A DNA stretch of 64,000 nt from an uncultured virus (IMG/VR IMGVR_UViG_3300026549_002537) (lineage: Duplodnaviria > Heunggongvirae > Uroviricota > Caudoviricetes). Position numbers and translations under genes: made by a program. The stretch lies in the IMG/VR virus record IMGVR_UViG_3300026549_002537. One strand, written 5' to 3'. Positions 2,782-64,000 of this stretch are shown in pieces (positions within the stretch are counted from its first letter, which is position 1; each line of letters begins with the position of its first letter). The notes under the pieces were generated by a model. That model was not told the DNA's origin. It made no database searches and saw only the letters and a program-made list of their open reading frames with translations.

Positions 2782-2792
2782 ATATCAGATGA

Positions 2793-9832: not shown

Positions 9833-11143
9833 TTATGTGAATTGATACCGAACCTTCCCCTGACCGAAGTACTGGGGCTTGATAGTGGTCTCAAAAGGAA
9901 TATTGCCAGCCTTCTTGAACTCTTCAAGCCAGAACTTCTGTTCCGAGTCGTTTGTAAGATACTTGCACAGAACGCCGTCCTGCTTCTTGTACTGGACTAC
10001 ATAGCGAGGCCCGTTCTGGGTCTGCACGTCCGGCTCGAAGTCGAGGACGGTAATCTGCATGTTCACCAGTGAGCGCAGATTCTCCGGTGTTCCCGGAAGG
10101 ATCCGCTTTCCATCCTTGCCAGTGTAGTCAACACCAGCGCCTTGTCTTTTTTTCTTCAATTCTGCAAATGATTCCATATTCTTTCCTGTTAATGTTTTAT
10201 ACAAATTCTTGCAGTCACCCCATTTGGCCATGCCTTTGAGGCTTCCGATGATTTCCTGCCTACGCTTGCGACTCTTGACCTTTGACAGCTTGCGGGCCGC
10301 TTTCTGCTTAGTCCTTTTCCTGAGTCGTGCCTTTTCGCCGTCGTACACGAAGCCGAGGAAGTCTATTCCCTCCTTGATGGGCTTCACGCTCTCATTGGGC
10401 TTTATCTGGAGGCCTAACTCTGCAACCTTCTCATGCATAATGTCGCGGAGCATCCAGAGCTTACTCTTGGAGTCTGCCAGTATGACGATGTCGTCACAAT
10501 AGCGGTAGTAGTACTTGACTCCCAGCACATCCTTGAAGTAGTGGTCGATACAGCTCAGTATGATGTTACCGTAACACTGGCTCGACCTCAGACCGATGGA
10601 GAGGCCCTTCGGCATCATGGTGATGAAGCTATGCAGGATCGGTAGAAGAACGGGGTCTTTTATGTAGTGCTTCACGCACCGCCACATCACTTCCTGGTCT
10701 ATCGACTCAAAGAACTTCTTGATGTCGCACTTGTAAAAGAACCTCGTGCCTTCCGGGTCGCTCTCGATGTCGTGGCGCATCTTCTCGAAAAGATGGTGCA
10801 TTCCACGACCGGGGATGCTTGCTGCAGATGTCTTGATTACGCCCGGATATAGCACATCTTCAACGATACGCATGATGGCGTTGCATCCTACCCTGTCAGT
10901 CACGCACGGGCTTTGCACCAGTCTTATCTTAGGCCCGTCCGTTACAAGCATTTCCTGATAGCCCCTCACCCTGAAAGTGCCGTCGGATATCTCCTTTGTC
11001 AGCCAGGCGATAATCGTTTCACGCTTGTTACGATAGTATGTACGCCTTGGCTCCTTTAGCTGGTCAACCACTTCGTCAAATGCCCGATCCATATTGGAAC
11101 GCTCAACGATCCTTGCGACCAGATGACCATATCTTTTAGCCAT
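9833..11143 (-). CDS. DGR reverse transcriptase with C-terminal extension
   Basis: KCDIKKFFESID, GLSIGLRSSQCYGN, YYYRYCDDIVIL, GIDFLGF; adjacent TR/VR pair. Start taken at MAKRYGH; the ORF track starts at 11176. Confidence 0.95.
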   Translation of the reverse strand: MAKRYGHLVARIVERSNMDRAFDEVVDQLKEPRRTYYRNKRETIIAWLTKEISDGTFRVRGYQEMLVTDGPKIRLVQSPCVTDRVGCNAIMRIVEDVLYPGVIKTSAASIPGRGMHHLFEKMRHDIESDPEGTRFFYKCDIKKFFESIDQEVMWRCVKHYIKDPVLLPILHSFITMMPKGLSIGLRSSQCYGNIILSCIDHYFKDVLGVKYYYRYCDDIVILADSKSKLWMLRDIMHEKVAELGLQIKPNESVKPIKEGIDFLGFVYDGEKARLRKRTKQKAARKLSKVKSRKRRQEIIGSLKGMAKWGDCKNLYKTLTGKNMESFAELKKKRQGAGVDYTGKDGKRILPGTPENLRSLVNMQITVLDFEPDVQTQNGPRYVVQYKKQDGVLCKYLTNDSEQKFWLEEFKKAGNIPFETTIKPQYFGQGKVRYQFT

Positions 11144-11365
11144 TACAATTCTTCTTCGTTCGTGTGGCCATAGCATGTTCGAGCAGATGCCTACTTATCC
11201 ATAATCGGCCACACCCTGTGATGTTCCAGTTTTCCATCCTGTAAAGGATGCTGTTACTGAGGCTCAAATCCCTCGCCGTCAGCCTTCACCCATCCCGTGA
11301 GTGTTCGCCGTAGCGACGATTGTTTCTCCAGGTGATTGCTCACCGTGAAGCAGAGTTTCGATTTA
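11144..11365 (-). other. TR-RT spacer, candidate structured cis-element of the DGR RNA
   Basis: Non-coding gap 3' of the TR; small hairpin catcct-gtaa-aggatg at 11235-11250. Confidence 0.5.
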
Positions 11366-11480
11366 GCAGAGCCGACCACCGTTGTTCGTGTTCGAGTTCG
11401 TGGAGGCGTTATTCGTGTTCGAATAAGCGACACCCGCGTTCGCATTCGCATTGTTGTTCGAGCGACCGAGCACCCGGCCT
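11366..11480 (-). repeat. DGR template repeat (TR)
   Basis: 115 bp, intergenic, 12 AAY codons (reads GRVLGRSNNNANANAGVAYSNTNNASTNSNTNNGGRLC then TAA); differs from VR1 and VR2 only at A. Confidence 0.97.
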
Positions 11481-11528: not shown

Positions 11529-11546
11529 GGTGGCCCTTCGGCCACC
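11529..11546 (-). promoter_or_regulatory. GC-rich hairpin/cruciform downstream of VR1 (DGR homing element)
   Basis: ggtggcc-gaag-ggccacc: 7-bp perfect stem, 4-nt loop, just after the target stop codon. Confidence 0.75.
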
Positions 11547-11551
11547 ACGTT

Positions 11552-14500
11552 CTACGCTGCCGCTTCAAGCTCGCTCTCGTTCTCAATCTCACCGAAGAAG
11601 CAGAGCCGACCACCGCTGTCCGCGTGCGAGTACGCGGAGGCGCCATCCGTGCTCGAACAAGCGACACCCGCGTACGCACTCGCATAGCTGCCCGAGCGAC
11701 CGAGCACCCGGCCTCGACCGCTATTAGTGGACTGATAAGCGGCATAGCACATAGCGTAGGTGGTCTCACCAGTATATGATGATACCACAATCTCACATCG
11801 TCTGCCGAAGCGGACACGGGCTGCACAGGTAGCCTGATTCTGGGTAGCTGCCTTAACCCTGCGCTCATTGCCGTCCTGTTGCAAGATGTTGTAGAAGTAG
11901 TCTATGGGATAGCTGTTGTTCGCGTCTGGCCGCTTGTCTTTGAGGAACTTGGCAAACGACGGCGCATTCATGCAGCCCTTGTCAGTCCACTCGTAGGTTG
12001 ATGCCGTCCAGCACTCAAGACCCCACATCTTGTTATGCTGGTTCTGTTCTGCATAGTCGGAGTCACCCATACCGATATTGTTGCGGACACCAGTTGTCTC
12101 ACCAGCCGAAGAACCGCGTCCTACGATGGTTTCAATGTCCCTGGTGCCGAACCATGCCATCAGCAGGTTTGCCATATCCTTCGATGTCTCGAAAGGCACG
12201 GTGGTATATTCACCGTTGAGAACTCCAGACTGATAGGTACGGTATCTTGCAAGGTTGAAGAAATCCTGTGCCGTACCGTTCAGCTTTGTCCCTGGGAGAT
12301 TTGTCGGGTTACCGTTGCCGTCATACGTCCAGTTGGAATTAGTTGTCGATGTACCATTACCGCGTATCACCACCTTTCCGCTGATGGAGCGTAAACCTCC
12401 AGTGGCAATGCCTCCAGATGCTCCGCTCATACCCTCGGCCCAACCTTGATAGATACCTATAAGCTCTGACTTGTGCTCTACCCAGTCAGGCTCGATGGCC
12501 TCCACTTCCATGCTGTCGGTAAGAATGACCTCCGGCAAGGTGGCTGCCGACTCCTTCGTACATGCGAAATAGATATACTTGGCATTCTCCGGGATAGTCA
12601 GGAAGATGTAGTCGCCTATGTTGTTGTCGAAGTCCGCAGGGTTGACAATGGATCCGTTCACGATGATATCCTGCATTTCAAATTTGAAGACCTGCAGCAC
12701 CTTGTTATTGAAGCCGACGAAGAGGACACATGCGAGGCCGTCGCTCCTGTCATGGTAGCCCGGGAACCTCACCTGTTTCATACCGCCGCTAACGTCCACC
12801 TTGTAAGTGTCGATGGCGTTTGAATTGTAAAGCAGGGCCTCGTTCATGGTGTCGCCTACATGGTGTCTCGTATTCAGTGGCACCGAGTCGGCCAGCTTGG
12901 TAACTGCTGCATCCGTAAGCTGTAACCTTGTCGTCATGCTTGCCGTGCTTTCTGGTACTGTGGTACGGTTTGAGAGGAACAGGTGCTTCCTTGCATTCTT
13001 ATAGTCGTTGACACCCTTGTAGTGGTACTTCGGTACATATAAGAACACGTCACGCAGAAGGACTGACGAGTTACCTGTGATATCGGCAGACGTGCCGTCC
13101 GCTTTCAGAGTATAGTTCGCCTTTGAAAGAGGCTCAACGTGCATCTTGTGGGTGTCAGGATTGACGTATGCAGTAACAGGCACACAACGGTCATGAATCA
13201 GCTCTACATGACCCGAATGGAAATATCCGTTGGGGTGTTCCGTCGTGCTGTCTGCTCCTGCCCGATAGTCATAGCCAGTCTTGTTGTCCTCATTGGTGAT
13301 GTTCGACGGGTCTGTTTCCTCGTCGTTGAAGATATACTCCGAATACTGGCTTTCGATGACGGTAAGGCCGCAGCGCTCGAAGAACGTCTGCATGGCGGCG
13401 AAGTCATCCACAACGTCGATAAGCTGCACGGTTCCGATCAGTGCCGGGTAGGTCTGCTCTGCACCTGTGGCGGTGAGGCCCATGAAGCCAGACATGAACG
13501 GTCTCAGTACAGAGGAACGTACACGTCCGCTCATTCCCTCTATGCGCACATGGTCGATGTTCTGGCACTGCTGGAGCAGGATTCTCCAGTCGAGGTTAGG
13601 ACACTCGGCGAAGTTGAGCGCACGTACAGAGGACGCATTCTGCAATGTAAGCCCGCTATGGGTGAGGTTTGGAAGGTAACGCAAAGTCAGCGTCTGCAAA
13701 GTAGAAGGCAACGTGAGAGTTGTTACAGGCGCACCTTCAGCTATGCTTACCTTGGTGAATGACGTGCCTCCTGCAAGCATGGTTGTCAAGCGAGTGTGCT
13801 TCGATACGTCAAACTCTCCTGGTGTTCCAGAATGTACGGCTGTCTGTCCCGTCACGTCAATATACTGGAGCTTCGATATGTCGCCAAATGTGATAGGAGC
13901 GTTAGCAATGCCATTGGTTGCAGGCATCACCAGTTTCTCCAGCATCGTACAAAGAGAGAGGTTTACGGTGCCATTCAATTGACTACCCATATTGGTGAAG
14001 TCAAGTTCCTTGATACATGAAGCGCCGCCCAGCATAAGCGGGTCGTTGGTCGCAAGATGCTGGGTGAAGTTCAATGTAAGATTCTCACCCTGTGCTGCTT
14101 GTGAAGGGCCTTGTAGCCAGAGACCATTCAGCTTGTAGCCGAAATAGTATAGGTCACCACTCTTCAACGTCAAACTGGATGGGGTGTCATTGGCATTGCG
14201 TACAACGGTGAAGGTAATCACATCACCATTATAATCACCTGCTCCGTATCTGGCATCGAGAAGCCTTGCGCGGTCTGTAAGGAAAGCGGTACGGTGTGCC
14301 TCACGGTTTCCTGTCAGCGTATAGACATAGTTCATTCTGTCTATGGTGTCGATATACTTCAACTTGCCAGACTTGTTATACTGACGTTCACTCCAGTTGC
14401 CCTGCATATTGATATTGAACTCTTCCAGCATCTTTGCAGTGGTGAGCTGGTTGCGAAGGTTGGCGGCACATTGCTTCAACTCATCCTCAAAGTTGGCCAG

Positions 14501-17500
14501 TACCAGGCACCATAACCATGAGCTGTGGCCCTCAAAGGCATATTTTGAACGTTCATTGTCGTAGGTGTCCCTGGTGACATTATAGAGGTACACCATAAAA
14601 GCATCGTTACGGATAGACTGAGCGGTATCACCGTCATAGTAGGTAGCCCACCATTTGAGGCCGTCCCATGTACGCCAAAGGATATTCTTGGCTCTCTGGT
14701 CAACGCTTGCCCAATAGTCCGTGAACAGATAATATGTCAATAGGTGATTCACGTTGAAATACTGCGAGGCCTCATTTTTGAACTTAGTGCTTACCCACTT
14801 GGCCTTTGAAACGTCACTCCAGCCTGCGGACGTGCCGTAGTCTGGGTTGGTTCTCATGGCAGAAGGTACGCAGTCATAGATCCATCCCATCCAACGCTTG
14901 ATAGCGTCTCTGGCTCCTGGTGCAGGCTTCACGCTCCACTTGTTTTTTGCAGAATCCCATTGTCCTTCATCTATGTTGGCCCACTTTGCATCCTCCGGAA
15001 AGTTGAATTCAAATCCATTGTCAAACTCTGCTGCCAGTTGGTTTGCAAGTGCATTGCTGTTAGCTGTACCAGCAGGTTGGAACAGGGTCATAGGCGAAGA
15101 GTTGTTCAAAGCCTCCAGTGCGATAGAAAGTGGGTTGTTCTCTGAACCGCTAAAGCCAGTAACACCCTCCATTCCGAATATCTTGCCGGACTTGGATTTC
15201 TCATTGTTGAGAACGAACTGGCCGCGATATGTCAATGCACCTTGCTCACTGGTTCCGCAGAAGATGTCACAGGGAAGTCCATCAATGGCCTGTCTCACCC
15301 TTGCATCATGCTCTTGCGGTGGCGTTTCAAGATGCAGTGCTTTCATTACGGTATCGAAAAGGTGAGCACCGCCAGTGTTCAGTACCAGAGAGGAATCCAC
15401 GAAGTCAGTCTTACAACAGATAACACCCTGCTCGATACTGTTACCTTCACCTCTTAAAGGATAGCCTTTGCCGGAGGCCGTTACATCTGTAGTACCGATG
15501 ACAAGTGAGCGTGTACCATCCTGTTCAGTGGTCAGGTAGATACGGATATTCTTATATGGGTACTTGACCGACGAAGTACCTTGGATTCTGACTCTGACAT
15601 TCCTTGCCTCGAAGCCCTCGCCGATCTTGTTTCCGTTGGCATCCAAAGGAGGATCCCACCTTACGAGGTCTGCCTTGAAGTTCTGCTTTTTATCTACGCA
15701 GGTGAAGAGGTCATCCATGCCGTCGCCGCTGTCACCGCTACGAATGATAGTCAACACTCCATGACCCTTTGACAGCAATGCATCACGGCTTATGGCGAGA
15801 TTACCATCAGAATCAGCCGTATTGTTGCTGTCACCAACGGCATTGTTGTTGTGGGCATCCTGTATCTCTGCTGCCGTCGGACGGTCAAGAATCCAGTTTG
15901 ACAATACCTCATCCGCTGTCAGAGGCGTACGATAGTAGCGCATACCCCTGATTCTGACATCAGCCTTATCGCTGTCAACGGTAATCATCTGCGGGGTGTT
16001 CTGTCTCAAAGCACCAGAATAGCGGTTGGCACGGCTTAATACACCATTGATGAACAGCATTGCCAATCCGTTACCGTTGGTCACTGGCAAAACAACGAAG
16101 GTGATATGCAGCCATTTGTCAGGACTGATATTCATGGAAACACCGTGCGGACGTGTCACCTTCAAAGGCACTTTGTGAGATTCATCAACGATGTTGCCCT
16201 CATAGTCGATGTAGTTGCCATTCTCATCAACCAAATCTTCAGCTGTAGTGATTTCCTCAACTCCACCGAAGTACAGTCCTGCCTCTTCCGTTGTAATCTT
16301 GATACCCATTGGATATCCTTGCCCTCCGTTATCCCAGAGACAGCTAACAACGGTTGCGCCACGCTGCATGACCTGCGAAATCTTCAACTCCATTTCAAAG
16401 GTCATACCGCTGTTCTGTATGGAGTAGTCATTATCGGATGAATCAAGAACGAATGGCATGATGTTGTGAACGGACTTTGCGCCATTTGTCAGCAGCAGGG
16501 CCGTTACTCCCTGCTGGTCGGTGTTCCAACCGTTGGTGCGGAAGTCAACGCCTGTAAACGTCGTGATACCGCCCCAGTCGCTTCGTGTGGCAAGGCTCTC
16601 GCTGTTGGTGCGCCCGTTTGCAGTCAGTTTGTTCCTGTAGCCGACAGCCTCAGTTTCTGTCACTCCTGCAGATGCGGACACAACCACGGCGAATGTGCGC
16701 GTCACGCTGCCGACAGAGATTGTCAGGGTATGGGTACCGCTCTCGTCGAAACGCTGGTTGAGCATCTGCATGGTACGGTCTGCAGAAAGGGTCTGTGTGG
16801 TCACTCCGTCAACGGCCACGACGACATTTGCCTCCAGTGAGTCTGCCTGCCATACGGCATAGTCCAAGGAGAGTGATCCGAACTGCTCAGCAGAAAGAGG
16901 TACAGCCTCGTTGCCGTAGGCGTATGGGAGAGGCATTTCCGAAAGCTGGGAAATAGGAACGGACATTCTGAAACCGAGGTAATTGTTTGAACTACCTGCT
17001 TTCAGTAAGTCGATGCTTACGACGTTGCTCAAAAGCCCGGAACTGACTGCTACGAGCTGGATATTGTGCCGTCCAGCCGAAAGGTCAGCCGCCGTCAGAT
17101 AGAGATTGCCCCTGGCTGTGCCGCTGACGGTTGCAGTATCAAACAGAACACCGTCCTTATAGATGTAGATAGTGGTGCCAGCAGGAACGGTGTAGGTATA
17201 AGGTATAGTGATAGTCTGCCCGTTCACGAAGCCGTTACTCAGGGCCAGAGCCGATGCCGGGTCAAAGGAGGTGGCCAAGTCCATGGTGATGACGCTCACG
17301 CTCTTGAATCCCTGCGCCCTCTGAGGTTCCTCGCCATATACCGTCTGTGCAATGACGTAGATGTTCACCGTGCCAGCCTGTGTGATGACATCAGGGCCAA
17401 GGGTCAGCACCTCGGTAGTTCCTGCTGCCACCATCGGCTTGGTAACGCTATATACCTCGGTAGTTCCAATCAATGCGCGTATGGTGATTGTCTGCGCTGC

Positions 17501-18064
17501 CGTACCGCTCGAAGTCTGCACACCCTCTTCCTGAATGATGTGGTCATACGTCCACCTCACGCTGATGGAGTCGCCGAGCTTCACACGGGCAGGTGTCAGA
17601 AGCTCCGTTGCAACCCTCGGGAACGTCACGGTTCCAATCTCACTTGCTGCAGGGATTCTGACAGAGGCAAAGTCGGTGCCTTGCTCGTTGGTGAAAACGA
17701 GGTCTAGCTGTGACGAGTCGCCCTCTACAGGATCGGTGCGGATGCTGTCGATTGTATTGCCCTTGATGCTGTTTATCTCATGCGCAACAGCCGCATTCTG
17801 GACAGCATTAGGACTTTCCTCAGACAATGACTGGTCAACGACGGGAAGGGTGATATCCACCACTCCGTTAACGTCCTTTGACTGCATCTGGTTATTCACT
17901 CTGATTCCAGACATCTTGCCTGCAATCGATGTGTCGTGAGAACCCAACTTCGCTTGAAGTGATTTCTCGATGTCGTAGCCGTAGTAGTCATCGAAATTGC
18001 CGTTGACAATATCAAACTGAACACCTTCGGCCTTGCTTCTTGGTTTGTTACTTCTTCTTGCCAT
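11552..18064 (-). CDS. Large DGR target protein (Ig-like/LamG + CotH-kinase-like + LRR + C-terminal CLec-type variable domain); putative virion adhesin
   Basis: WLHITFV...LFINGV (LamG-like); RIQGTSS..YPYKN, DQRAKN, YYDGDT (CotH-like); LxxLxL repeats; C-terminus contains VR1. Confidence 0.8.
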   Translation of the reverse strand: MARRSNKPRSKAEGVQFDIVNGNFDDYYGYDIEKSLQAKLGSHDTSIAGKMSGIRVNNQMQSKDVNGVVDITLPVVDQSLSEESPNAVQNAAVAHEINSIKGNTIDSIRTDPVEGDSSQLDLVFTNEQGTDFASVRIPAASEIGTVTFPRVATELLTPARVKLGDSISVRWTYDHIIQEEGVQTSSGTAAQTITIRALIGTTEVYSVTKPMVAAGTTEVLTLGPDVITQAGTVNIYVIAQTVYGEEPQRAQGFKSVSVITMDLATSFDPASALALSNGFVNGQTITIPYTYTVPAGTTIYIYKDGVLFDTATVSGTARGNLYLTAADLSAGRHNIQLVAVSSGLLSNVVSIDLLKAGSSNNYLGFRMSVPISQLSEMPLPYAYGNEAVPLSAEQFGSLSLDYAVWQADSLEANVVVAVDGVTTQTLSADRTMQMLNQRFDESGTHTLTISVGSVTRTFAVVVSASAGVTETEAVGYRNKLTANGRTNSESLATRSDWGGITTFTGVDFRTNGWNTDQQGVTALLLTNGAKSVHNIMPFVLDSSDNDYSIQNSGMTFEMELKISQVMQRGATVVSCLWDNGGQGYPMGIKITTEEAGLYFGGVEEITTAEDLVDENGNYIDYEGNIVDESHKVPLKVTRPHGVSMNISPDKWLHITFVVLPVTNGNGLAMLFINGVLSRANRYSGALRQNTPQMITVDSDKADVRIRGMRYYRTPLTADEVLSNWILDRPTAAEIQDAHNNNAVGDSNNTADSDGNLAISRDALLSKGHGVLTIIRSGDSGDGMDDLFTCVDKKQNFKADLVRWDPPLDANGNKIGEGFEARNVRVRIQGTSSVKYPYKNIRIYLTTEQDGTRSLVIGTTDVTASGKGYPLRGEGNSIEQGVICCKTDFVDSSLVLNTGGAHLFDTVMKALHLETPPQEHDARVRQAIDGLPCDIFCGTSEQGALTYRGQFVLNNEKSKSGKIFGMEGVTGFSGSENNPLSIALEALNNSSPMTLFQPAGTANSNALANQLAAEFDNGFEFNFPEDAKWANIDEGQWDSAKNKWSVKPAPGARDAIKRWMGWIYDCVPSAMRTNPDYGTSAGWSDVSKAKWVSTKFKNEASQYFNVNHLLTYYLFTDYWASVDQRAKNILWRTWDGLKWWATYYDGDTAQSIRNDAFMVYLYNVTRDTYDNERSKYAFEGHSSWLWCLVLANFEDELKQCAANLRNQLTTAKMLEEFNINMQGNWSERQYNKSGKLKYIDTIDRMNYVYTLTGNREAHRTAFLTDRARLLDARYGAGDYNGDVITFTVVRNANDTPSSLTLKSGDLYYFGYKLNGLWLQGPSQAAQGENLTLNFTQHLATNDPLMLGGASCIKELDFTNMGSQLNGTVNLSLCTMLEKLVMPATNGIANAPITFGDISKLQYIDVTGQTAVHSGTPGEFDVSKHTRLTTMLAGGTSFTKVSIAEGAPVTTLTLPSTLQTLTLRYLPNLTHSGLTLQNASSVRALNFAECPNLDWRILLQQCQNIDHVRIEGMSGRVRSSVLRPFMSGFMGLTATGAEQTYPALIGTVQLIDVVDDFAAMQTFFERCGLTVIESQYSEYIFNDEETDPSNITNEDNKTGYDYRAGADSTTEHPNGYFHSGHVELIHDRCVPVTAYVNPDTHKMHVEPLSKANYTLKADGTSADITGNSSVLLRDVFLYVPKYHYKGVNDYKNARKHLFLSNRTTVPESTASMTTRLQLTDAAVTKLADSVPLNTRHHVGDTMNEALLYNSNAIDTYKVDVSGGMKQVRFPGYHDRSDGLACVLFVGFNNKVLQVFKFEMQDIIVNGSIVNPADFDNNIGDYIFLTIPENAKYIYFACTKESAATLPEVILTDSMEVEAIEPDWVEHKSELIGIYQGWAEGMSGASGGIATGGLRSISGKVVIRGNGTSTTNSNWTYDGNGNPTNLPGTKLNGTAQDFFNLARYRTYQSGVLNGEYTTVPFETSKDMANLLMAWFGTRDIETIVGRGSSAGETTGVRNNIGMGDSDYAEQNQHNKMWGLECWTASTYEWTDKGCMNAPSFAKFLKDKRPDANNSYPIDYFYNILQQDGNERRVKAATQNQATCAARVRFGRRCEIVVSSYTGETTYAMCYAAYQSTNSGRGRVLGRSGSYASAYAGVACSSTDGASAYSHADSGGRLCFFGEIENESELEAAA
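11600..11714 (-). repeat. DGR variable repeat VR1
   Basis: 17 mismatches to the TR, all at TR adenines (13 A>G, 3 A>T, 1 A>C). Confidence 0.97.
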
Positions 18065-31737: not shown

Positions 31738-31808
31738 TTCTGGGTACGAGGCTCGAACTCGTGACCTCTCCTGTATGAGGGAGTGTTCTACCACTGAACT
31801 AACCCAGA
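31738..31808 (-). tRNA. Degenerate tRNA with CAT-like anticodon (Met/Ile2), possibly a pseudo-tRNA
   Basis: Acceptor tctgggt/acccaga, D-arm gttc-agtggta-gaac, T-arm acgag-ttcgagc-ctcgt; anticodon arm 16 nt instead of 17; no encoded CCA. Confidence 0.7.
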
Positions 31809-37043: not shown

Positions 37044-38714
37044 TCAAAGGCTCCGTAATTTCCCATCTTCATTCATAACATAAACAGTAGGTAGTTCAGA
37101 CAGGTTCCTCCCCAGTACAATAAGCCGACCTCTTTCGCGATTGACCGCCGTTATAACATCCTTATCTCTTTTCGCCTCAGAGTAGAAAATAACTGCCTGG
37201 GCTTTTCTTGCATCCTTGTAATAAGACCTGATAGTGTTCTCATTGGCCATAGAGATATATTTAACGTCCCATGTGAGACCATCAAACGCAAGATCAGGTT
37301 TACCAGTACCCTTGCCGTTCTCAGGCAAGAACTCCACTTGTTTTGCTCCTACGTCCGCCAGTGTTCGACCGACATGCTTTTCTGCTTCACCACCAGACAT
37401 TTTGGCACCTGCGGCTTTGGTTCCAGAGAACTGATGTGAACGGTGGTAAACATTGTAGCCGCCGTTTTCTTCATTGAAATACGCCTTTTCCCATTCTTCA
37501 TCGTATGTTTGGTATTTTCGCCTTGCCTCGTTGATGGTGTTTCTTTCATCCATTTTCGCCCCCGGCCCTGTTGAACTTGTGTCCGTCTTGACATACTTCG
37601 GGTTGTCCTTTATCCAGTAGGGCAGGGTGTCGCGCTCGGCGGCTCTACCGATGCGCTCCTGGTTCTCGTCAATCCATTGGCTGAAACCGTCATGAGGCTT
37701 CGTAATCTCCCCGCTGAACTGCCAGTTGCTGACATCTTCCCCGTTGAGCATGGCCCGGCGATAGGCAATGATCTCATTTTCGTCGGCCAGAACGTCGGTA
37801 GTGTAGCACCTGCACTGCGGATGCCAGCCAACAAACTTGAAATCCTTCGGGTACCTACCTGTCAGTCTCTCGCATATCTTGCACGGGAATTTGTGCTTTG
37901 ACCGCTTTACCTCGACGCCGATAATCCACGGATGCTGCTGTCTGCGCTCATTGTCGGCGGCACGGTAGGCCATATTGGTTTCAGTCCTGGCAAGGCGCAT
38001 GGCGTTCTTATAGCTGCTGCGGTACTCACCACGTCCGGGATGGTACGCTGCGGCCCTCTTCGACAGCTTCAAGTTTCCCTTCTCGTCACGTACCCGACGG
38101 AAAAGACGGTCGGGCTCCTGCAGGTACTGGCGCACATGACGCGACACGGTGGCCGCAGAGTCGCCACGCCCGAGGCTTACGCTGAGTGCCAGTTCCATTT
38201 CCTCCTTGAACTGGCTGGTGTACTTCCACACCTTCTGGGAGAGGTTCAGTCCGCCGTACTCGCTCTTGCGGCTGAAGAAGGCGTCCATGGCCTCACGGTT
38301 GCGGGCAAACAGGCGGGCAAAGCGACTGTCATCCTTCGTGCCCTTGCCCATGGCCAGCTCAACCATCCGGTCATTGGCATCATTGGCAAACTCCCACTCG
38401 CGGATGACGCCACTGCGGATCTCCCCATAGACGGCACTGTAGAGGTAGCGAAGTATGGCATTGCTCTTTTCCGACATTCGCTTGGTGCTATTGAAGCTGA
38501 ATACCTCGTTTTCCGCATCCAGTTCCACCCTTGCCGACAGTTTCAGCAGCTCGTCAAGGGCAGTGGTATAATATTGGCCCACATGGTCAGCATATTCCTC
38601 GGTACGCCCGAAGAGTCCGATGGCCATCTCGTCGGCTATCTGGGCGGTCTGCCACTCTATCTGATTGCGCCCGGCCTTCCGCTTCGGTCTTTCTTTCTCT
38701 TTTTTCTTGCTCAT
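37044..38714 (-). CDS. MuF / minor head morphogenesis protein with C-terminal PD-(D/E)XK nuclease-like (toxin) domain
   Basis: RLARTETNMAY, CKICERL, GWHPQCRC (MuF); C-terminal extension GKPDLAFDGLTWDVKY. Confidence 0.8.
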   Translation of the reverse strand: MSKKKEKERPKRKAGRNQIEWQTAQIADEMAIGLFGRTEEYADHVGQYYTTALDELLKLSARVELDAENEVFSFNSTKRMSEKSNAILRYLYSAVYGEIRSGVIREWEFANDANDRMVELAMGKGTKDDSRFARLFARNREAMDAFFSRKSEYGGLNLSQKVWKYTSQFKEEMELALSVSLGRGDSAATVSRHVRQYLQEPDRLFRRVRDEKGNLKLSKRAAAYHPGRGEYRSSYKNAMRLARTETNMAYRAADNERRQQHPWIIGVEVKRSKHKFPCKICERLTGRYPKDFKFVGWHPQCRCYTTDVLADENEIIAYRRAMLNGEDVSNWQFSGEITKPHDGFSQWIDENQERIGRAAERDTLPYWIKDNPKYVKTDTSSTGPGAKMDERNTINEARRKYQTYDEEWEKAYFNEENGGYNVYHRSHQFSGTKAAGAKMSGGEAEKHVGRTLADVGAKQVEFLPENGKGTGKPDLAFDGLTWDVKYISMANENTIRSYYKDARKAQAVIFYSEAKRDKDVITAVNRERGRLIVLGRNLSELPTVYVMNEDGKLRSL

Positions 38715-56994: not shown

Positions 56995-57045
56995 ACCTTT
57001 TTTCTCCTTTACGTTACCTATACAATAACCTGATAAACACATAAG

Positions 57046-57576
57046 CTACATCATGTCAAAAAGTGATAACTGCAAGGACTTCTGGCGCTCTTCCGCTTCT
57101 CTCTGCTTCCTGATGCGTTCCTCCTTGGCCTTGCGCTCCTTTTCCTCACGCTTGCGCTCTTCCTCCTTTAGCTTGGCAAGCTGCTCTTTCTCATAGTCTG
57201 CCTTGGCTTTCTCCTTCGCCTCGGCCTTCTCTTCATCGGACAGCTCTACGGTGTGGTTTACGACTATCTTGGCGGCAGCTACTGGCTTCACGTCCTTGAT
57301 GTCATCCTCGTCATAGTAGTGAATGGCCATGTTGTAGATTTCGTCGTCATCGAATCCACAACAGCCTGACTTCTTCACCTGCTGGAGAATGTAGTTACAG
57401 CACTCGTCAAGGTTCTTATTCTCCTTGGCGTAAGTCTTTGCGAAAAGCGCATCTTCAGCCGCTCTCTTGTCGAGATATGCCTTGATGGTTTTCTTGAAAG
57501 AGGTGGAAACCTTCTCACCTCTGGGAGCGGACTTCTTCTGTTCCTGCTCCTTCTTGGTCTCATTCTTTGTTGCCAT
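57046..57576 (-). CDS. PcfK-like protein
   Basis: FKKTIKAYLDKRA.ED.LFA..Y...KNLDECCNYI...GFDDDEIYNMAIHYYDED; ends QLSLFDMM. Confidence 0.88.
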   Translation of the reverse strand: MATKNETKKEQEQKKSAPRGEKVSTSFKKTIKAYLDKRAAEDALFAKTYAKENKNLDECCNYILQQVKKSGCCGFDDDEIYNMAIHYYDEDDIKDVKPVAAAKIVVNHTVELSDEEKAEAKEKAKADYEKEQLAKLKEEERKREEKERKAKEERIRKQREAEERQKSLQLSLFDMM

Positions 57577-57593
57577 ATCAATATTGCGTTGAA

Positions 57594-58337
57594 TTAAAGT
57601 TTTCTTCTGTCCTGCCCCTTTATCTCCATGTAGTTGCACATTTCCACAAGTCGGCTGGCCACACGGTCGCCGTAACGCTCGATAAGGGTCTTGTGGGACA
57701 TGGGATAGTTTGAGGTGAACAATGTGATTAAATCCGTCCTGTCACCCCTCGACTCAATGAGGGTACGCAGGACTTCCAGTTTGTTTCCCATGAAGCAGCA
57801 CTCCGTAGGTTCTGCCCCAAGGTCTTGAATGCCGATGATGTTGGTTTTCTTATAGCCGTCAATGTTGCCAGTATTGGTGAATCTGGCACACACATCATCT
57901 GCACTTACGTTAGCCCAGACAAGCTGATTGAGCTTGTCATCGAAGGTTATCTGGAATCCCATCAAGCGTGAGTATTCGAGGATGATTTCGAGAGCCCACG
58001 ACTTACCTGTGCCAGTGTTCCCGGCAATGTAGATGCCACGCTTCAAGTCCCCCTTGCGCACCTCCTTGCTGTCAGCATCGAGGCACTGCATGGAAGCGTC
58101 GCCGTGTACCCACTTGATCAGGTTCGTATAGGTAAAGCGGTTTTCATCGTCAATCACGAACTTCTGCGTCCTGCTCTTACCCAATATCTCTATCATCTGC
58201 AGGGACTCGTTGATGTCATAGTCCGTGTAGCGGTAGCGGATAATGTCATTGAACAGGCCGCGCTGCTTCATCTTCTCCAGAAGGAGGCTGATTCTGTTCG
58301 TGCGGATCACTTCGCCTTTCTCGTTCTTTATTTCCAT
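57594..58337 (-). CDS. DnaC/IstB-like ATPase (helicase loader)
   Basis: GNTGTGKS, IQDLGAE, TSN, RYGDRVASRLVEMCN. Confidence 0.85.
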   Translation of the reverse strand: MEIKNEKGEVIRTNRISLLLEKMKQRGLFNDIIRYRYTDYDINESLQMIEILGKSRTQKFVIDDENRFTYTNLIKWVHGDASMQCLDADSKEVRKGDLKRGIYIAGNTGTGKSWALEIILEYSRLMGFQITFDDKLNQLVWANVSADDVCARFTNTGNIDGYKKTNIIGIQDLGAEPTECCFMGNKLEVLRTLIESRGDRTDLITLFTSNYPMSHKTLIERYGDRVASRLVEMCNYMEIKGQDRRKL

Positions 58338-59053
58338 AGATCATTCACTTGATTGGTTCCAGAAGATGATTCCTTGCCGCTCTTCCTCAGTTCGTCTTTG
58401 TACTTGTCAACGACCCAGTTGAGAATTGCCCTGTAGTCTGACTTGTAGGATCGGCCAGTAGCGGCCTTGTAGTTATCAAGGAGTTCAACCATCCTCTTTG
58501 CTCCGGCCTCGCCGTATTCCTCCACCAGCTTTGAGTACTCAGCGTCAGTCATCTTGACCGTATCTGTGTACTTGTGCTTGACGTCGGATTTCGGCTTTGC
58601 CGGGGCTTTTACCGATGGATTTGCCGTCTCGTTTGCTGCATCATTTGTCGCGGCAAAACGCTTGTTGGTGATGGATGACCCCCTGCGTCCGGCTTCTGCA
58701 CGCTTCTCGCTGATTTCCGAGTCGCGTATCATCCGCTTCTGGCACAGATAGTTGCCTTCCACGTAGAGGACACCTTCACCGACAAGCTCTTTCAGGGCGT
58801 TAAGAATCTCTTTCTTGTCGTATGGCATGTGACGAACCAACTGGGAGGCGAACTGCTCCAGCGGCTCGATACCACCGAAGAGGGAAATATCCCTCGACTT
58901 GATGGCTATCTTGCCGTAGGGGTCAGACTTATGCATCATACACATCAGTCTGATGTAGATGCCTGTTGCCGATGCGGAACACTCCAGCAACTTTTCATCG
59001 TTGAGGAAGTCCTGCACGTTCAACGGCAAACATGGTTGGTCTCTTAATGCCAT
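58328..59053 (-). CDS. Putative replication initiator (DUF1376/YdaU-like)
   Basis: QDFLNDEKL..CS..ATGIYIRLMC; QKRMIRD; C-terminal YKSDYRAILNWV; upstream of the DnaC-like gene. Confidence 0.75.
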   Translation of the reverse strand: MALRDQPCLPLNVQDFLNDEKLLECSASATGIYIRLMCMMHKSDPYGKIAIKSRDISLFGGIEPLEQFASQLVRHMPYDKKEILNALKELVGEGVLYVEGNYLCQKRMIRDSEISEKRAEAGRRGSSITNKRFAATNDAANETANPSVKAPAKPKSDVKHKYTDTVKMTDAEYSKLVEEYGEAGAKRMVELLDNYKAATGRSYKSDYRAILNWVVDKYKDELRKSGKESSSGTNQVNDLWK

Positions 59054-59058
59054 AATCT

Positions 59059-59937
59059 CTACTTCTCGTTATAAACCAGTGAGAACTCTTTCGGAACGAA
59101 GCCCTTGGCAGGCATCGGTACGGCTTTCTCGATGCAGAGCGTAGCCATCCGCACCTGGTACTCGCCGCCTTCCTTCTCTGCACGTTCCTTGCGCTTTTCC
59201 TCGCATTCCTGCAGATACCTGCTGATGACCACCAAGGCACGGTTCGTGTCGATGGTGTTCACGATGAAGGACTGGTGCAGCTCAACGCCATCGTCATAGG
59301 TGATCTTCATATCCATCTGGAAGAACTTCTTCTGATCCTCCCTGATGGGTTCTTCATCCTCCTTGCTCTCTGTCTTGGCATTGATGTAGGTCTCCATGTC
59401 GATTTTGTCCTGAATATAGGCCACATCGATATTCTCCTTGCTCATTTCATCGGTGAGGATGATGCAGGAGTCCATTTCCTTGATGGCTGTGAACACGAAA
59501 CCGCCGCTCCTGTTCAGCTCCAGGTAGTCACGCATGATTTCCAGAACATTCTCGATGCCACAGGCGTAGAGGATGAAGCGAAGATTATCCTTGCCGATGC
59601 GGACGTTCACGCTGTAGGGGTAGAGGGCCGTGTTCTCCAGCTCGTAGGCCTCGCGGTTCTGATTGCTGACCTCAATCTCCTTACATTCCCCTGCTGCCTG
59701 TGAGAACTGAATCTTCTGGAGAACGTCGCGGGTGATGAGAGTACCCTTCTCGAAAAGCACCTCATTGCGTTCTATCTCACATGGCTTTCCCGTGTCATGG
59801 TCGAAGAACGTCTCTTTCCACGTCTTCAAGACCTTCTTGCAGATGTACTTGTTAAGCATCCGCTTCGGGTCAGCTGTCGTGATGCGGATTTCATCCTTCC
59901 GCGTCTCAACCTTCTTCTTGATTGCTTTCTTTGCCAT
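59059..59937 (-). CDS. Hypothetical protein with an N-terminal RpoB-like segment
   Basis: VLKTWKETFFDHDTGKPCEIERNEVL resembles a Bacteroidetes RpoB segment as I recall it. Confidence 0.6.
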   Translation of the reverse strand: MAKKAIKKKVETRKDEIRITTADPKRMLNKYICKKVLKTWKETFFDHDTGKPCEIERNEVLFEKGTLITRDVLQKIQFSQAAGECKEIEVSNQNREAYELENTALYPYSVNVRIGKDNLRFILYACGIENVLEIMRDYLELNRSGGFVFTAIKEMDSCIILTDEMSKENIDVAYIQDKIDMETYINAKTESKEDEEPIREDQKKFFQMDMKITYDDGVELHQSFIVNTIDTNRALVVISRYLQECEEKRKERAEKEGGEYQVRMATLCIEKAVPMPAKGFVPKEFSLVYNEK

Positions 59938-59939
59938 AG

Positions 59940-60542
59940 TTACTTACCATTTGTTGTGAACATCATAAACTCAGCCCAGATGTCGAGGAACTGCTTGCCT
60001 GCGTACTCAGCCAAATCTCTTGTCTTGAAGCAGAGCCGACCACCGCTGCCCGAGTTCGAGAACGTGGAGGCGTAATTCGCGTCCGAAAAAGCGACACCCG
60101 CGCTCGCACCCGCATAGTTGTTCGAGCGACCGAGCACCCGGCCTTTATCCTCTTCATCCATTTCGTCTATCTCCTTCTGTGTGTAGAGACAGAACCATGG
60201 ATAATAGCGGTATTCATCGGTTGTGAACTTAGGCTCCCATCCCTCATTGAGGGCATAGGCGATAATGGCCAGCTTCATATAGGCCAATATCTGGGGATTC
60301 TTGATATTGTCGGCATTGGACTCATAGTCTGCCAACAGGGTTGCAGCCGTATCGTCGCCAGAAAGGGCTTTCGTGTTCAACTCCTGGAGTGCATCGTCAA
60401 GCGTCTTTACACGCTCCATGATATCCTTTGGCTTGAACAGATCCTTTCCGAGCAGATGTTCCAGCAGTTCCTTACCCTCGGGTGATGCGTTCTTATAGGC
60501 ATTCAGCGCATTCTCTTCCGAAATCTTAATTTCCTTTTTCAT
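59940..60542 (-). CDS. Second DGR target protein (200 aa, no signal peptide or TM)
   Basis: Contains VR2 (GRVLGRSNNYAGASAGVAFSDANYASTFSNSGSGGRLCF); ALNEGWEP..YYPWF motif. Confidence 0.9.
   Translation of the reverse strand: MKKEIKISEENALNAYKNASPEGKELLEHLLGKDLFKPKDIMERVKTLDDALQELNTKALSGDDTAATLLADYESNADNIKNPQILAYMKLAIIAYALNEGWEPKFTTDEYRYYPWFCLYTQKEIDEMDEEDKGRVLGRSNNYAGASAGVAFSDANYASTFSNSGSGGRLCFKTRDLAEYAGKQFLDIWAEFMMFTTNGK
60030..60144 (-). repeat. DGR variable repeat VR2 (remote)
   Basis: 115 bp; 14 mismatches to the TR, all at TR adenines (8 A>G, 6 A>T). Confidence 0.96.
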
Positions 60543-60738
60543 TGTTACTTTCTTTAATTGATGATTTGAGTTTCTTATCCAGCTTCTTCGCCATAAGCCG
60601 CATGAGCCTTGCGCGGTTCTCCAATCGGAGGGTTCCGATTCCGAGTTTGTTCCTGCGGCATACCTCGACCGTTATAAGGGCGGCAGACTCTTCCAGAAAC
60701 TGGATGATATTCTTGATATCTGTCTTACATACTTCCAT
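60526..60738 (-). CDS. Small hypothetical protein
   Basis: MEVCKTD...NRARLMRLMAKKL. Confidence 0.6.
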   Translation of the reverse strand: MEVCKTDIKNIIQFLEESAALITVEVCRRNKLGIGTLRLENRARLMRLMAKKLDKKLKSSIKESNNEKGN

Positions 60739-60739
60739 G

Positions 60740-61495
60740 TCAGTACGGTTCTTTGGATAGGTCGAGCGTCATGCCTGCATTGGCAGCGTACACGCACTTT
60801 CCCGTCAGCTCTGAGACCTCACGGACAAAACGCTTCTCGTCTGAGTTTCCGTCGGAGAGGTGAATCAGGATGATGTTGCTTACGTCCGAGAGGTCATTGT
60901 CCTGTAGTATGAGCTTGGTGGTACCAATCTCCATGTGGGATTTCAGCAGACGGGGGCGCATAGCCGGGGGAACGCTGCCGTTCTCAATATTCCTGGTCAG
61001 AATGTCGTCGGCATAGTTCGCCTCAATCATGATGTGGTTCATGCGAGGCACAACCATGTCAAGCGTCATGGTGTCGGTGACGAACAGGATCCTTCCGCTT
61101 TCGGGATGGTCAATGACAAAACCGAGGCATCCGCATCTTGTGCCGTCATTGTTGGAATGATTGAGGGCAATCGGCATTATCTTGAAGTCGCCAACCTTGA
61201 TGCCGTGCAGCGGCTCGATGGCCCGAGTGAATGGAGCACCGAGCAGCTGCTTGGCTTCAAGTGTCTCAGAGAGTGCCAGAACCAGTACCCCGGAAGCGGC
61301 CAGTTCGCCGATGTACTTGGCGTGGTCATTGTGATGGTGGCTGATGATTGCCCCTACAATGCCGTTTATATTGAATCTGAGAGCCTTTTTCACTTCCAGA
61401 AACCTTACACCTGCCTCTACTATCAGAGAGCCGCTGGCGGCCTCCAAAACGTAGCAGTTGCCAAGTGAGTTGCTTCCAAGGATATGCAGTTTCAT
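60740..61495 (-). CDS. MBL-fold metallo-hydrolase (putative exonuclease partner of RecT)
   Basis: LGSNSLGNCY, SHHHNDHA, TDT, IEANY, HLSDGNS. Confidence 0.9.
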   Translation of the reverse strand: MKLHILGSNSLGNCYVLEAASGSLIVEAGVRFLEVKKALRFNINGIVGAIISHHHNDHAKYIGELAASGVLVLALSETLEAKQLLGAPFTRAIEPLHGIKVGDFKIMPIALNHSNNDGTRCGCLGFVIDHPESGRILFVTDTMTLDMVVPRMNHIMIEANYADDILTRNIENGSVPPAMRPRLLKSHMEIGTTKLILQDNDLSDVSNIILIHLSDGNSDEKRFVREVSELTGKCVYAANAGMTLDLSKEPY

Positions 61496-61514
61496 GCTGT
61501 CTGGCTTTTATGGG

Positions 61515-62453
61515 TTAATAACCTGGTTCGTCATCGTTCGCGGGAGCTGCAGGAGCAGGAGAAGGAGCGGATTCGGACTCTTGACCCTGCGACTGCTGAG
61601 TGGTGCCGCTGTTCGTGACGTCCTCATACTCCGCATCTTCGAGCTTGGTAGTAGAGCGGCCCTGCACCTCTGCGTCACGCTGACGCTGTGCGGTGTCCAC
61701 ATCATCCTCGTCTTGCTTGCCCTCATAGAGCCATGCGTCATCAGAGCTGTTGATGACCATCTTACAGGCACGGCCGATGACCGTCTTCTTACACATTTCG
61801 GCAGGGAAGTTCTTGTGTGCCGGACTCTGACCCTTGGTGGCTCCCTGGTTCCAAGCCTTCTTGATTTGGTCGATGGTCATGATAGTTACCTCAGTTCTGC
61901 CATCCTCAAAGGTGGTGATGGCGTAAGCTGCCTTGATTTTGGCATCGTCGATGTTCTCAATCTTCTGGTCGTGCTTGATGACCTTCATGAGTCCTGTTTC
62001 TGGATCGATGGTGTACACGAACTCGTCGCCCTCATAGATGACGTTGGCGACTGGTTCACGCTTGATGCCGCCACCGACACGCTTTGCCAGTGCAACGGTG
62101 CCGAAATAGGAACGCTGGAACTCCAGCTTGTTTCCGTAGGCAATGAAGTAACCCTGATTCTTGCTCACGGCCATACCCTGCAGCACCATGTCGAAAAGGG
62201 CGTTGGCAATGGATGCCTTTGTGCATACTTCCAGCACTGGCTTGTTGTTGCGGTCGAGGGTTTCTTGAAGAATGAGCCATGCTGACTTCATGTTGTTCTC
62301 CACGGAATAGTTCTTCGGGAGAATCAGGCCTCCGTCCGCAGTGAACTTGTTTACTTTTTCGAGAACCTGATCTGAAATGTTCTCGTACTTGACTACAGCA
62401 GTCTGTTGCTGCTGTGTTCCCGGCTGGGCTGTTGTCGATTGATTCTGTGACAT
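61515..62453 (-). CDS. recT: RecT family single-strand annealing recombinase
   Basis: SIANALFDMVLQG, YFIAYG, RSYFG, VIYEGDEF, EMCKKTVI. Confidence 0.9.
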   Translation of the reverse strand: MSQNQSTTAQPGTQQQQTAVVKYENISDQVLEKVNKFTADGGLILPKNYSVENNMKSAWLILQETLDRNNKPVLEVCTKASIANALFDMVLQGMAVSKNQGYFIAYGNKLEFQRSYFGTVALAKRVGGGIKREPVANVIYEGDEFVYTIDPETGLMKVIKHDQKIENIDDAKIKAAYAITTFEDGRTEVTIMTIDQIKKAWNQGATKGQSPAHKNFPAEMCKKTVIGRACKMVINSSDDAWLYEGKQDEDDVDTAQRQRDAEVQGRSTTKLEDAEYEDVTNSGTTQQSQGQESESAPSPAPAAPANDDEPGY

Positions 62454-62481
62454 ACAATCTTGAATTTAGGGTGAAACATTA

Positions 62482-64000
62482 TTATTGAACTTTGAGCTTC
62501 GTACAGGAAGCGTCAACTATCAAATTGATTACCTGGGAGTCCACGTCTATGATATCTGTGGCCGACTCCCTGTTGTCGATGAAGATGGGGGCGTTTACCT
62601 CATTGGCCCGGCAGATGGCATTGATGATGTCAAGCCCGGCATTGATTTTCTCTGAGTTGGATAGTACGGAGTAGGGGGTGCCGTGCATCATGCACTCGCA
62701 GGTCTCGACTTCGCCGCCGTTGATCTGTCGCTCGTACATCTTGAACTTGACGATGGAGAAAAGGCTGTTGATTTTGCCCTCTACCATGGCCACCTTCGCC
62801 TTGCCGAACTCCAAGATGTTGAACTCGATGCCTTCAAGCTCAGTCAGGGCCTCGTTGTTCTTCTTCAACTCTTTCTCCAGTTCCTCGATGCGCTTCAACG
62901 TGGCGGCAATGGTATCACGCTTTGCCAGACGCTTGCGGTCATCCTCTATGCCTTCCAGCAGGAGGTTCTTTCCGTCGGTGAGGAAATCGGTATCTGGCTT
63001 CTCGATGGGCTTGGCGATCTCTGCCTCCAGTGCGGCAATCTCCTTGTCGATTTGCTGAAGCTCTGCATCTGAGGCAATGCCGGAGGTGATATCTGGCTGA
63101 GTCGGTGCAGCCTCTGTGAAGGGCTTCTCGACGAGTGATGCCAGAAGGGCTTCTTTCTCCTTGATGACAGCCTCGGACTTGGCAATGCTCTCTTTCAGCT
63201 GGGCCACCTCAGCGGCAACCTTCTGGCCGTTGGTCTTATTCTCGGTGAGCAGGTGGGAGGTGTGAGCATTGTATGCCTGTCGCTGTTCCTCAATGCTTCG
63301 TTCAATCTGACTCTGCTCATAGGGACGGCCACAATGCGGGCAGACGGTTTCAAGGTTCTCTGGGTTGAACTCACGGGCCTTGATGCTGCGCCACTCGTCA
63401 CGGAGTCTGTTAAGCCGCTGTTCGCGCTCGTTGATGTCACATTGTAGGCTGATGATGACTTCACGCTCACGTCTGATTTCAGACTCGGCCATCCTGCGGC
63501 GCTGGCTGGTGTCGAAGCTCTGCTGCTGTGCTGCAATGCGTCGGTTGTTGTAGTCCTCGGTCTGCTTATAGAAGTCTTTCAGCAGTTCGTCGCGGACGGC
63601 ACCCTCACGGACGGCACGCTGGCGTTTCTTCTCGGCAAGTTCCTTGGCTTTAGAGGCTGTTTCCTGTGCCTTGGCCTGGTAAGCCTTGCCCTCGTCGGCA
63701 ATCTGGCCGTCAAGCTCCTTAATCTTCGCCTCCTTCTCCTTGATGTCCTTTTCAAGGGCTGACCAGTCCTCGGCCTCCGGCATCTGGCGTTTGTTCTCGT
63801 CGATGCGTGCAGGGATGGTCTCGATGGCTTCCTTGATGCGCTTCTTCTTCGCTCCTATCTCACGCTTGTATTCATCCAGCGTCTTGTGGCTCAGCTGCTC
63901 GGCGAGGTTGGCGAACTTCTCCTGGTCACTGGCCGCTACGTCGGCATCTGTGAGGTCACCTGCCATCTGGAACAGCATACCGCGCTGTATGGCTGGCTTC
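62482..64000 (-). CDS. SbcC/Rad50-like AAA coiled-coil ATPase (5' truncated)
   Basis: Long coiled coil with CPHCG hook; LSNSEKINAGLDIIN, PIFIDNRES; open to the window edge. Confidence 0.85.
   Translation of the reverse strand, partial: KPAIQRGMLFQMAGDLTDADVAASDQEKFANLAEQLSHKTLDEYKREIGAKKKRIKEAIETIPARIDENKRQMPEAEDWSALEKDIKEKEAKIKELDGQIADEGKAYQAKAQETASKAKELAEKKRQRAVREGAVRDELLKDFYKQTEDYNNRRIAAQQQSFDTSQRRRMAESEIRREREVIISLQCDINEREQRLNRLRDEWRSIKAREFNPENLETVCPHCGRPYEQSQIERSIEEQRQAYNAHTSHLLTENKTNGQKVAAEVAQLKESIAKSEAVIKEKEALLASLVEKPFTEAAPTQPDITSGIASDAELQQIDKEIAALEAEIAKPIEKPDTDFLTDGKNLLLEGIEDDRKRLAKRDTIAATLKRIEELEKELKKNNEALTELEGIEFNILEFGKAKVAMVEGKINSLFSIVKFKMYERQINGGEVETCECMMHGTPYSVLSNSEKINAGLDIINAICRANEVNAPIFIDNRESATDIIDVDSQVINLIVDASCTKLKVQ

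Follow-up and report, generated by a model that had tools for sequence, protein, structure and literature searches.

Diversity-generating retroelements (DGRs) are understood mechanistically from Bordetella phage BPP-1, whose element has a single adjacent target (Mtd) with a solved C-type lectin fold and an accessory protein, Avd, and in which a stem-loop downstream of the variable repeat (VR) enhances retrohoming. DGR work has so far centred on adsorption proteins. Here we analysed the IMG/VR virus record IMGVR_UViG_3300026549_002537, a stretch of 64,000 nucleotides assigned to the Caudoviricetes (the window, meaning the whole stretch), which holds the prophage of a Bacteroidales bacterium from rumen or gut; this prophage measures at least 56 kb and carries one DGR. 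Very probably this single DGR has two targets, a tail protein with a first VR (VR1) and a 200-aa protein of the phrog_11581 family, encoded in the recombination/replication block, with a second (VR2).

The layout of one phage DGR with a non-adjacent, apparently non-structural second target is already published for related gut phages. For Quimbyvirus it was described in 2021, in a paper that we take to be by Benler. That second target, located in a 'defence-related island', was called 'without precedent' (PMC8008677). In 2025 four more prophage species followed (PMC12629997), in a paper that cites both the Quimbyvirus and the LoVEphage paper for LoVEphage and so supplies the basis for equating the two phages. 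A broader survey counted non-adjacent targets for 45 of 372 DGRs, those within the same prophage being common for phage-associated DGRs (PMC5758913); the 48.7 kb spacing in the window fits this pattern, and the survey, in its available part, does not go into what kind of proteins the second targets are. Two-target DGRs are also known from Faecalibacterium-type phages (PMC10743442; bioRxiv 10.1101/2024.10.15.618418) and from Roseburia phage Shimadzu, in which both VRs were mutated in virion reads, culture and mouse viromes (bioRxiv 10.1101/575076). A large metagenome survey states that remote targets escaped its method (PMC8144416).

In the window, the template repeat (TR), its two variable copies and the genes carrying these copies are as follows.

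11366..11480, minus strand: TR, 115 nt with 29 adenines, defined by repeat alignment
11600..11714, minus strand: VR1, at the C-terminal end of the 2170-aa tail-region protein, with 17 of 115 positions mismatched to TR, all at adenines
11552..18064, minus strand: gene of the VR1-bearing 2170-aa protein in the tail block, phrog_14959, E 0
60030..60144, minus strand: VR2, covering residues about 134-171 of the 200-aa protein, with 14 of 115 positions mismatched to TR, all at TR adenines
59940..60542, minus strand: gene of the 200-aa second DGR target, soluble and acidic, phrog_11581, E 3.8e-58 over residues 3-197

Read on the coding (minus) strand in a gapless alignment, VR2 was identical to TR at 86 of 86 non-adenine positions, and its 14 mismatches fell among the 29 TR adenines; the chance of 14/14 mismatches landing on adenines is 2.2e-10 (hypergeometric). 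Beyond the 5' edge of the repeat the copies have one further A in common, after which similarity stops. At the 3' edge the common ...CGGCTCTGC-T is followed by TC in both VRs and by AA in TR, which makes TAA in the TR frame. Fifteen codons are changed relative to TR in VR1 and 11 in VR2, with an identical change at two codons only, AAT>TAT and the last AAC>AGC. A preliminary description of this DNA had reported the 115-nt copy with every mismatch at a TR adenine and identical non-A positions, the loss of similarity at the repeat edges, and just two common changed codons, and had suggested that VR2 is rewritten independently of VR1. All three observations were reproduced, and the differences between the two VRs support that suggestion.

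Common to TR, VR1 and VR2 are a 5' block of 21 nt without adenines and a GC-rich 3' block of 15 nt. The adenine-free 3' end common to all three, ...GGTGGTCGGCTCTGCT, with the divergence just beyond it, has the pattern that separates an initiation of mutagenic homing (IMH) site from the IMH* of a template, and would be a putative IMH. BI-TP1 and Versailles, two phages discussed below, likewise have two 3'-terminal differences from TR that are common to both VRs. A low-stringency blastn search with the TR region against the whole window returned three copies only, namely TR, VR1 and VR2. TR and VR2 are 48,664 bp apart in the integrated prophage map. On the 64,675-bp viral contig of a close relative the two sites lie about 12.2 kb apart, the other way round, so that the 48.7 kb in the window reflects the point at which the prophage was opened at integration, and the separation is about 12 kb on the circular map. 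Under the BPP-1 model, TR and the structured RNA downstream of it would be transcribed and then reverse-transcribed with errors at adenines, and the cDNA would replace either VR in trans, guided by the GC-rich 3' end, with its TC or AA extension, and by 5' homology. Trans action of DGRs has been demonstrated experimentally, according to PMC5758913.

Three lines of evidence from natural variation indicate that VR2 is actively rewritten. A protein search returned 1490 homologs of the 200-aa protein at E<=1e-3, among which 26 natural homologs at least 86% identical were used to measure column diversity. The 16 TR-adenine codon columns hold 3-10 residues each (mean 7.3) and the other 184 columns a mean of 1.17; the 22 adenine-free columns within VR2 hold 1-2 each. 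The region is also present in cattle, sheep and goat gut sequencing runs from 14 studies, and a 3760-nt contig of an independent sheep-gut run covers VR2 with both flanks; all of its listed VR2 differences, at least 10, are at TR-adenine positions. Four sequencing runs were compared, as assembled contigs. Several apparent VR2 differences in runs X2 and X5 were excluded as coming from TR or VR1 contigs placed on VR2, because the loose ends of these contigs are TR and VR1 flanks. Finally, in the IMG/VR relative UViG_3300031992_000093 (64,675 bp), one of the 115 TR positions departs from the window TR (T>C, repeat position 36); VR1 and VR2 both carry C there, where all three window copies have T. 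The expectation that VR2 would track its own TR is thus borne out at one site in one relative. Together with the A-only mismatches and the population hypervariability at A codons, this tracking upholds the earlier proposal that the same DGR has a true second target in VR2. A scan of viral contigs for a 17-nt invariant VR word gave 13 loci, three of them copies on one related contig and the other 10 in unrelated sequences containing the word. With the DGR cassette as megablast query, none of 50,697 phage records matched.

As judged by repeat comparison, one conserved family, phrog_11581, recurs as a distant DGR target in BI-TP1, Versailles and many Bacteroidales prophages. Homologs in annotated phages are 33-37% identical to the window protein (58% over a half-length BT-TP2 match) and are all called 'hypothetical' except that of Versailles, called 'tail protein'. 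LoVEphage records and BI-TP1 match at 33-36% identity over 96-97% of the query, with E down to 2e-26. In BI-TP1, a LoVEphage-like phage, gp84 (35% identical) has 14/14 mismatches at adenines of the TR beside the phage's own reverse transcriptase (RT), about 56 kb away on the linear record. For Versailles WAK79127, 14/16 mismatches are at adenines of its own TR; the other two, common to both VRs at the 3' end, are expected because that end is VR-specific. The VR was non-adjacent in 3/3 phage records examined, the window included. When one genome was scanned per species, 224 relatives were identified, nearly all in Bacteroidales. We further assembled a prophage test set of 17 gene copies in 15 species genomes, a non-random choice made for long contigs or named strains. 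Every RT match in a genome, with 1.5 kb of DNA to either side, was compared with the gene copy of that genome. In 9 of the 17 copies at least 80% of mismatches fell at adenines of a TR adjoining an RT in the same genome: Alistipes putredinis DSM 17216 (20/20), Muribaculaceae MF13079 (14/14), Barnesiella WM24 (9/9), Phocaeicola coprocola (14/15), and loci L025 (10/11), L032 (12/12), L036 (14/14), L048 (18/21) and L085 (14/17). Three more copies (L019, L076 and L020) had 67-75% of mismatches at adenines.

Elsewhere in Muribaculaceae MF13079 (loci L107/L101, about 758 kb), a repeat in TR position is without nearly all of its adenines, AAC-type codons being replaced by GCC, GGT and the like, and a family-member gene 14 kb off shows no adenine bias; by its letters, this repeat looks like a decayed or overwritten template. 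The family also has longer forms, three proteins of 362-404 aa and two of 337-338 aa, with other N-terminal extensions that belong to no Pfam family. In these longer members the first 40 or so residues are swapped for other N-terminal modules, which give no functional clue; the longer form P0123 looks like a read-through into a membrane protein. At 60229-60403 in the window, runs X2 and X17 have 173 bases of the N-terminal helical part replaced by 161 other letters. The N-terminal part of the 200-aa protein therefore has alternative versions among close relatives, as the different N-terminal modules of the longer family members likewise indicate. One contig of run X2 joins 59934 to 60540, leaving out nearly exactly the 200-aa gene (depth 10.5, only 30 letters on the shorter side); on this weak evidence, it may represent a relative without the gene.

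The genes around the 200-aa gene have the following Pfam and PHROG matches.

62482..63978, minus strand: SbcC-like ATPase, upstream
61515..62453, minus strand: RecT, upstream
60740..61495, minus strand: metallo-beta-lactamase (MBL)-fold hydrolase, upstream, completing the block 60740..63978
59059..59937, minus strand: phrog_35807, function unknown, downstream (PHROG)
58328..59053, minus strand: replisome organizer, downstream (PHROG)
57594..58337, minus strand: DnaC-like loader, downstream, completing the block 57594..59937 (PHROG)

Directly upstream of the VR2 gene is a 70-aa open reading frame (ORF), overlapped by the VR2 gene start, and 3 nt separate the VR2 gene stop from the next start. 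A sigma-70 promoter and terminator scan of 57000-64000 gave counts at shuffle level, Bacteroidales promoters being outside the scan's models. The 200-aa protein has a conserved 30-aa C-terminal tail past VR2. It contains no hydrophobic N-terminus or transmembrane (TM)-like stretch, its maximal 19-residue Kyte-Doolittle mean being 1.03, and 0 of 67 family members exceed 1.6 on this measure. Its likeness to the 2170-aa tail protein is limited to the 40-aa VR, and in the PHROG scan its sole tail-family match was a 44-residue VR stretch of phrog_14959.

The same setting recurs across the family. At 63 loci with full flanks we took the first neighbouring ORF of 100 aa or more in each direction, giving 126 proteins for a PHROG scan, 45 of which had no PHROG match and one of which was a piece of the gene itself. 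None of the 126 fell into the PHROG tail, head, connector or lysis categories. Upstream neighbours included 12 MBL hydrolases, 13 phrog_3657 proteins and 2 NinB; downstream neighbours included 12 DnaD-like or replication initiators, 10 RecE-like exonucleases and 4 phrog_35807 proteins. The annotated contexts of BI-TP1 and Versailles agree with a non-structural location. Judged by their neighbours, family members are embedded in a recombination/replication gene block, outside the structural module. The preliminary description had placed the VR2 gene between RecT/MBL and replication genes, in an early rather than a structural block, and had given its product neither signal peptide nor TM segment; gene matches, the 63-locus context and hydropathy agree with it on each count.

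It had also raised a minimal C-type lectin fold as a possibility, which our data do not support. Two AlphaFold2 runs with different alignments gave mean predicted local distance difference test (pLDDT) scores of 79.0 and 79.8 and predicted template modelling (pTM) scores of 0.69 and 0.70. Both models had confident helices at residues 9-98, 122-127 and 175-193, and the VR (about 136-167) fell below pLDDT 50 in both; the scaffold is thus predicted to be helical, with the VR unmodelled. Foldseek returned 0 matches against the PDB at E<=1e-3. The best VIA-align match among 48,161 chains (Z 4.7) was to a designed minibinder, and we read it as a common helical arrangement. Four BFVD matches at E<=1e-3 were all to an 'uncharacterized protein' of gut phages, one labelled crAss-like, and the ESM Atlas gave 'hypothetical protein' clusters only. 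Pfam families of the lectin, FGE-sulfatase or DUF1566 type matched 0 of 66 family members at E<=1 and did not match the window protein at E<=10, and PDB sequence and profile searches gave nothing below E 0.04. The conserved motifs around the VR, NEGWxPxF...RV(L/V)xR-[VR]-G(G/S)RL(A/C)F, may resemble the FGE-type lectin target pattern GNVWEW...RVxRGGSW-[VR]-GFRLA.

Gene position and the missing export signals lead us to infer an intracellular, non-virion role. We lean towards a soluble protein made with the early genes, the variable surface of which would bind a strain-variable intracellular partner; with the same guarded preference, that partner would be either a host protein, acting in defence or in DNA metabolism, or a rival element. 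A minority possibility is that the protein is something other than an early intracellular binder or a virion adhesin. As a tentative extension of the intracellular binder reading, phrog_11581 might comprise conserved, DGR-diversified intracellular binders, a phage-side 'antibody' made with the recombination/replication genes. Selection would act on its hypervariable face for neutralising or sensing host factors that differ between strains and are directed at phage DNA ends or at replication, examples being defence nucleases and RecBCD-like functions. The DGR would then tune post-entry host range in parallel with adsorption, and the scaffold could also be, on the predicted models, a helical, non-lectin presentation of a DGR variable region.

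We consider it unlikely that the 200-aa protein serves as an accessory adhesin of the virion, its gene lying apart from those of the tail, with the helical part docking on tail or capsid and the VR displayed like a stand-alone Mtd-type tip. VR2 is the same cassette as the VR of the tail protein, and receptor binding has been proposed for both targets of other two-target phage DGRs (PMC10743442; bioRxiv 10.1101/2024.10.15.618418). Against this, the gene is packed among recombination/replication genes on one strand, no structural gene was found among the 126 nearest neighbours, and in phage Shimadzu selection acted less strongly on the VR2 alleles than on those of the tail VR1 (10.1101/575076). 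The 'tail protein' label of the Versailles homolog came from HHpred against PHROGs and was probably assigned via its VR, the part to which the tail match of the window protein is confined.

That label is nevertheless one of several observations that weigh against two active targets with an intracellular second product. No hairpin was found 3' of VR2 (DNA fold, z +0.89), unlike VR1, and VR2 may be hit less often if a VR1-type hairpin helps homing here. Neither Avd nor the HRDC accessory family was found among 62 window ORFs (Pfam, E<=0.01). The RNA-library contigs over the region are possibly carried-over DNA, and none from run X5 covers VR2. The prophage test set was a selected one, and 5 of its 17 copies had no adenine-biased TR: L056 has a repeat at the TR position without its adenines, L044 a VR-like match only and L023 an RT with no repeat within 1.5 kb; no RT was found for L026 and L035. 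The missing hairpin, and decayed DGRs adjoining some family members such as L056, would suit a fossil VR2, an old retrohoming or gene-conversion product no longer rewritten. This is highly improbable, as the 26 near-identical homologs each have a different VR2 in a protein otherwise almost invariant, VR2 has followed the T>C change of its TR in the relative, and every non-A position still matches TR. We give next to no weight to VR2 having been written by another DGR elsewhere in the host genome instead of by TR 11366-11480. Some Bacteroidales genomes hold several DGRs, with up to 6 RT matches in one genome, and the comparison for this locus was made within the window; but the complete non-A match is to the window TR, the edges of VR2 coincide with those of VR1, and TR, VR1 and VR2 occur together on the 64.7-kb viral contig and co-vary there. 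A single DGR with two targets remains our firmly preferred account.

The DGR cassette (RT, RT-3 RNA motif and TR) is placed at the end of the tail block, in the order 2170-aa VR1 protein, GC hairpin, TR, RT-3 RNA motif and RT. Its further elements are listed here.

9833..11176, minus strand: DGR RT, a 447-aa ORF, Pfam RVT_1 E 9.6e-14 and phrog_1423 E 8.2e-89
11165..11321, minus strand: RT-3 RNA motif, Rfam RF03068, in the interval from TR to the RT start, full model 1-148 (cmscan)
11529..11546, minus strand: GC hairpin GGTGGCC-GAAG-GGCCACC with a 4-nt loop, its stem in the centroid structure (DNA fold)

DGR-type RTs are marked by an [I/L/V]GxxxSQ motif and a YxDD catalytic motif; the window RT has IGLRSSQ at residue 194 and YCDD at residue 226, and its true start is likely the second Met (MAKRYG...). 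The RT-3 RNA motif scored 92.9 bits, well above the 40.5 of the gathering threshold (E 1.1e-20, cmscan), and is probably the structured 3' part of the DGR RNA. In the VR frame TR reads G R V L G R S N N N A N A N A G V A Y S N T N N A S T N S N T N N G G R L C, then TAA. The GC hairpin sits about 54 nt 3' of VR1, past the tail gene stop codon, and the 2170-aa protein is encoded downstream of a tape-measure-like ORF (26193-30950). A 164-aa ORF after the RT matches only phrog_19239, function unknown. Accessory genes vary among DGRs (PMC5758913), so a missing Avd or HRDC protein does not exclude DGR membership. In run X5, an RNA library, a 439-nt contig with TR flanks (approximately 11155-11592) would cover TR and the RT-3 RNA motif; it fits a transcribed DGR RNA, with carried-over DNA as the alternative, and identity of RNA-library contigs to the region is no proof of transcription.

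The prophage, of Bacteroidales type, spans about 7.5 kb to past 64 kb of the window, with a G+C of about 0.50, compared with 0.40-0.43 over the initial 7 kb. Among its genes are those for portal, terminase, major head protein, tape measure, holin/amidase, DUF4248 and PcfJ/PcfK, as well as methyltransferases, SSB, RecT and replication genes. Beside it, the low-G+C block 1582-7080 contains a tyrosine integrase, a DUF3987 protein and HTH_17 proteins, and may be the integration module of the phage itself or a small integrative element in its own right. A phage tRNA gene at 31738-31808 (minus strand; Rfam tRNA, 55.3 bits), flanked by two small ORFs just upstream of the tape-measure-like gene, was left unnamed by ARAGORN, which read its anticodon as the four bases 'cata'. 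Either this is a normal CAU tRNA whose loop was called oddly, or the gene could be tied to the usual tail-chaperone frameshift site. Adjoining the portal gene, a 556-aa ORF at 37044-38714 (minus strand) has a weak, sub-threshold and thus tentative match to a CdiA C-terminal toxin domain (E 6e-4, 20.4 bits, below the 26.6 cut-off) and is probably a minor head or ejected protein.

The layout is already in print, and the window alone leaves existing knowledge unchanged. It adds a ruminant-gut lineage to the two-target phage DGRs, and one family now recurs as second target in at least three phage lineages and many prophages. Since an early-block second target is conserved in many phages of Bacteroidales, hypermutation may well act also at a stage that follows DNA entry, and through the family culturable test systems come within reach, namely BI-TP1 or LoVEphage (host Bacteroides) and Versailles (host B. 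caecimuris).

Compared with BPP-1, the window has the same adenine-specific mutagenic retrohoming and GC-rich 3' VR end, and its VR1 also has a GC hairpin with a 4-nt loop; it differs in having two targets, no Avd found, a VR2 without hairpin and a VR2 scaffold predicted to be helical. Closer likeness is seen with Quimbyvirus and LoVEphage, which also have one TR, a tail-side VR and another VR in a small protein whose gene is remote from the structural ones (PMC8008677). The small protein of LoVEphage and BI-TP1 is a sequence homolog of the window 200-aa protein (33-36%), and Quimbyvirus is linked to it via LoVEphage only. The Quimbyvirus target lies among methyltransferases, a nuclease and a tRNA ligase, and its RT is split by frameshifts, whereas the window target lies between RecT/MBL hydrolase and replication initiators and its RT is a single ORF; both Quimbyvirus targets are called C-type lectin proteins, an assignment not recovered here for the phrog_11581 family (PMC8008677). 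In the gut Bacteroidota prophages of PMC12629997 the remote VR was found, as in the window, by similarity to TR (BLAST) and was seen as part of a phage-host arms race; the available part of that paper holds no family-level analysis of the second target, unlike the present work. Shimadzu resembles the window in having two VRs written from one TR, with VR2 in orf43, function unknown, and differs in its host, which belongs to the Firmicutes and not to the Bacteroidales (10.1101/575076). The literature searched, in its available parts, contained no statement of one family recurring as second target across Bacteroidales phages, always in a recombination/replication block, and supplementary tables or figures may hold one. 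Relative to these systems, the modest additions made here are one conserved second-target family and a non-lectin prediction for its scaffold.

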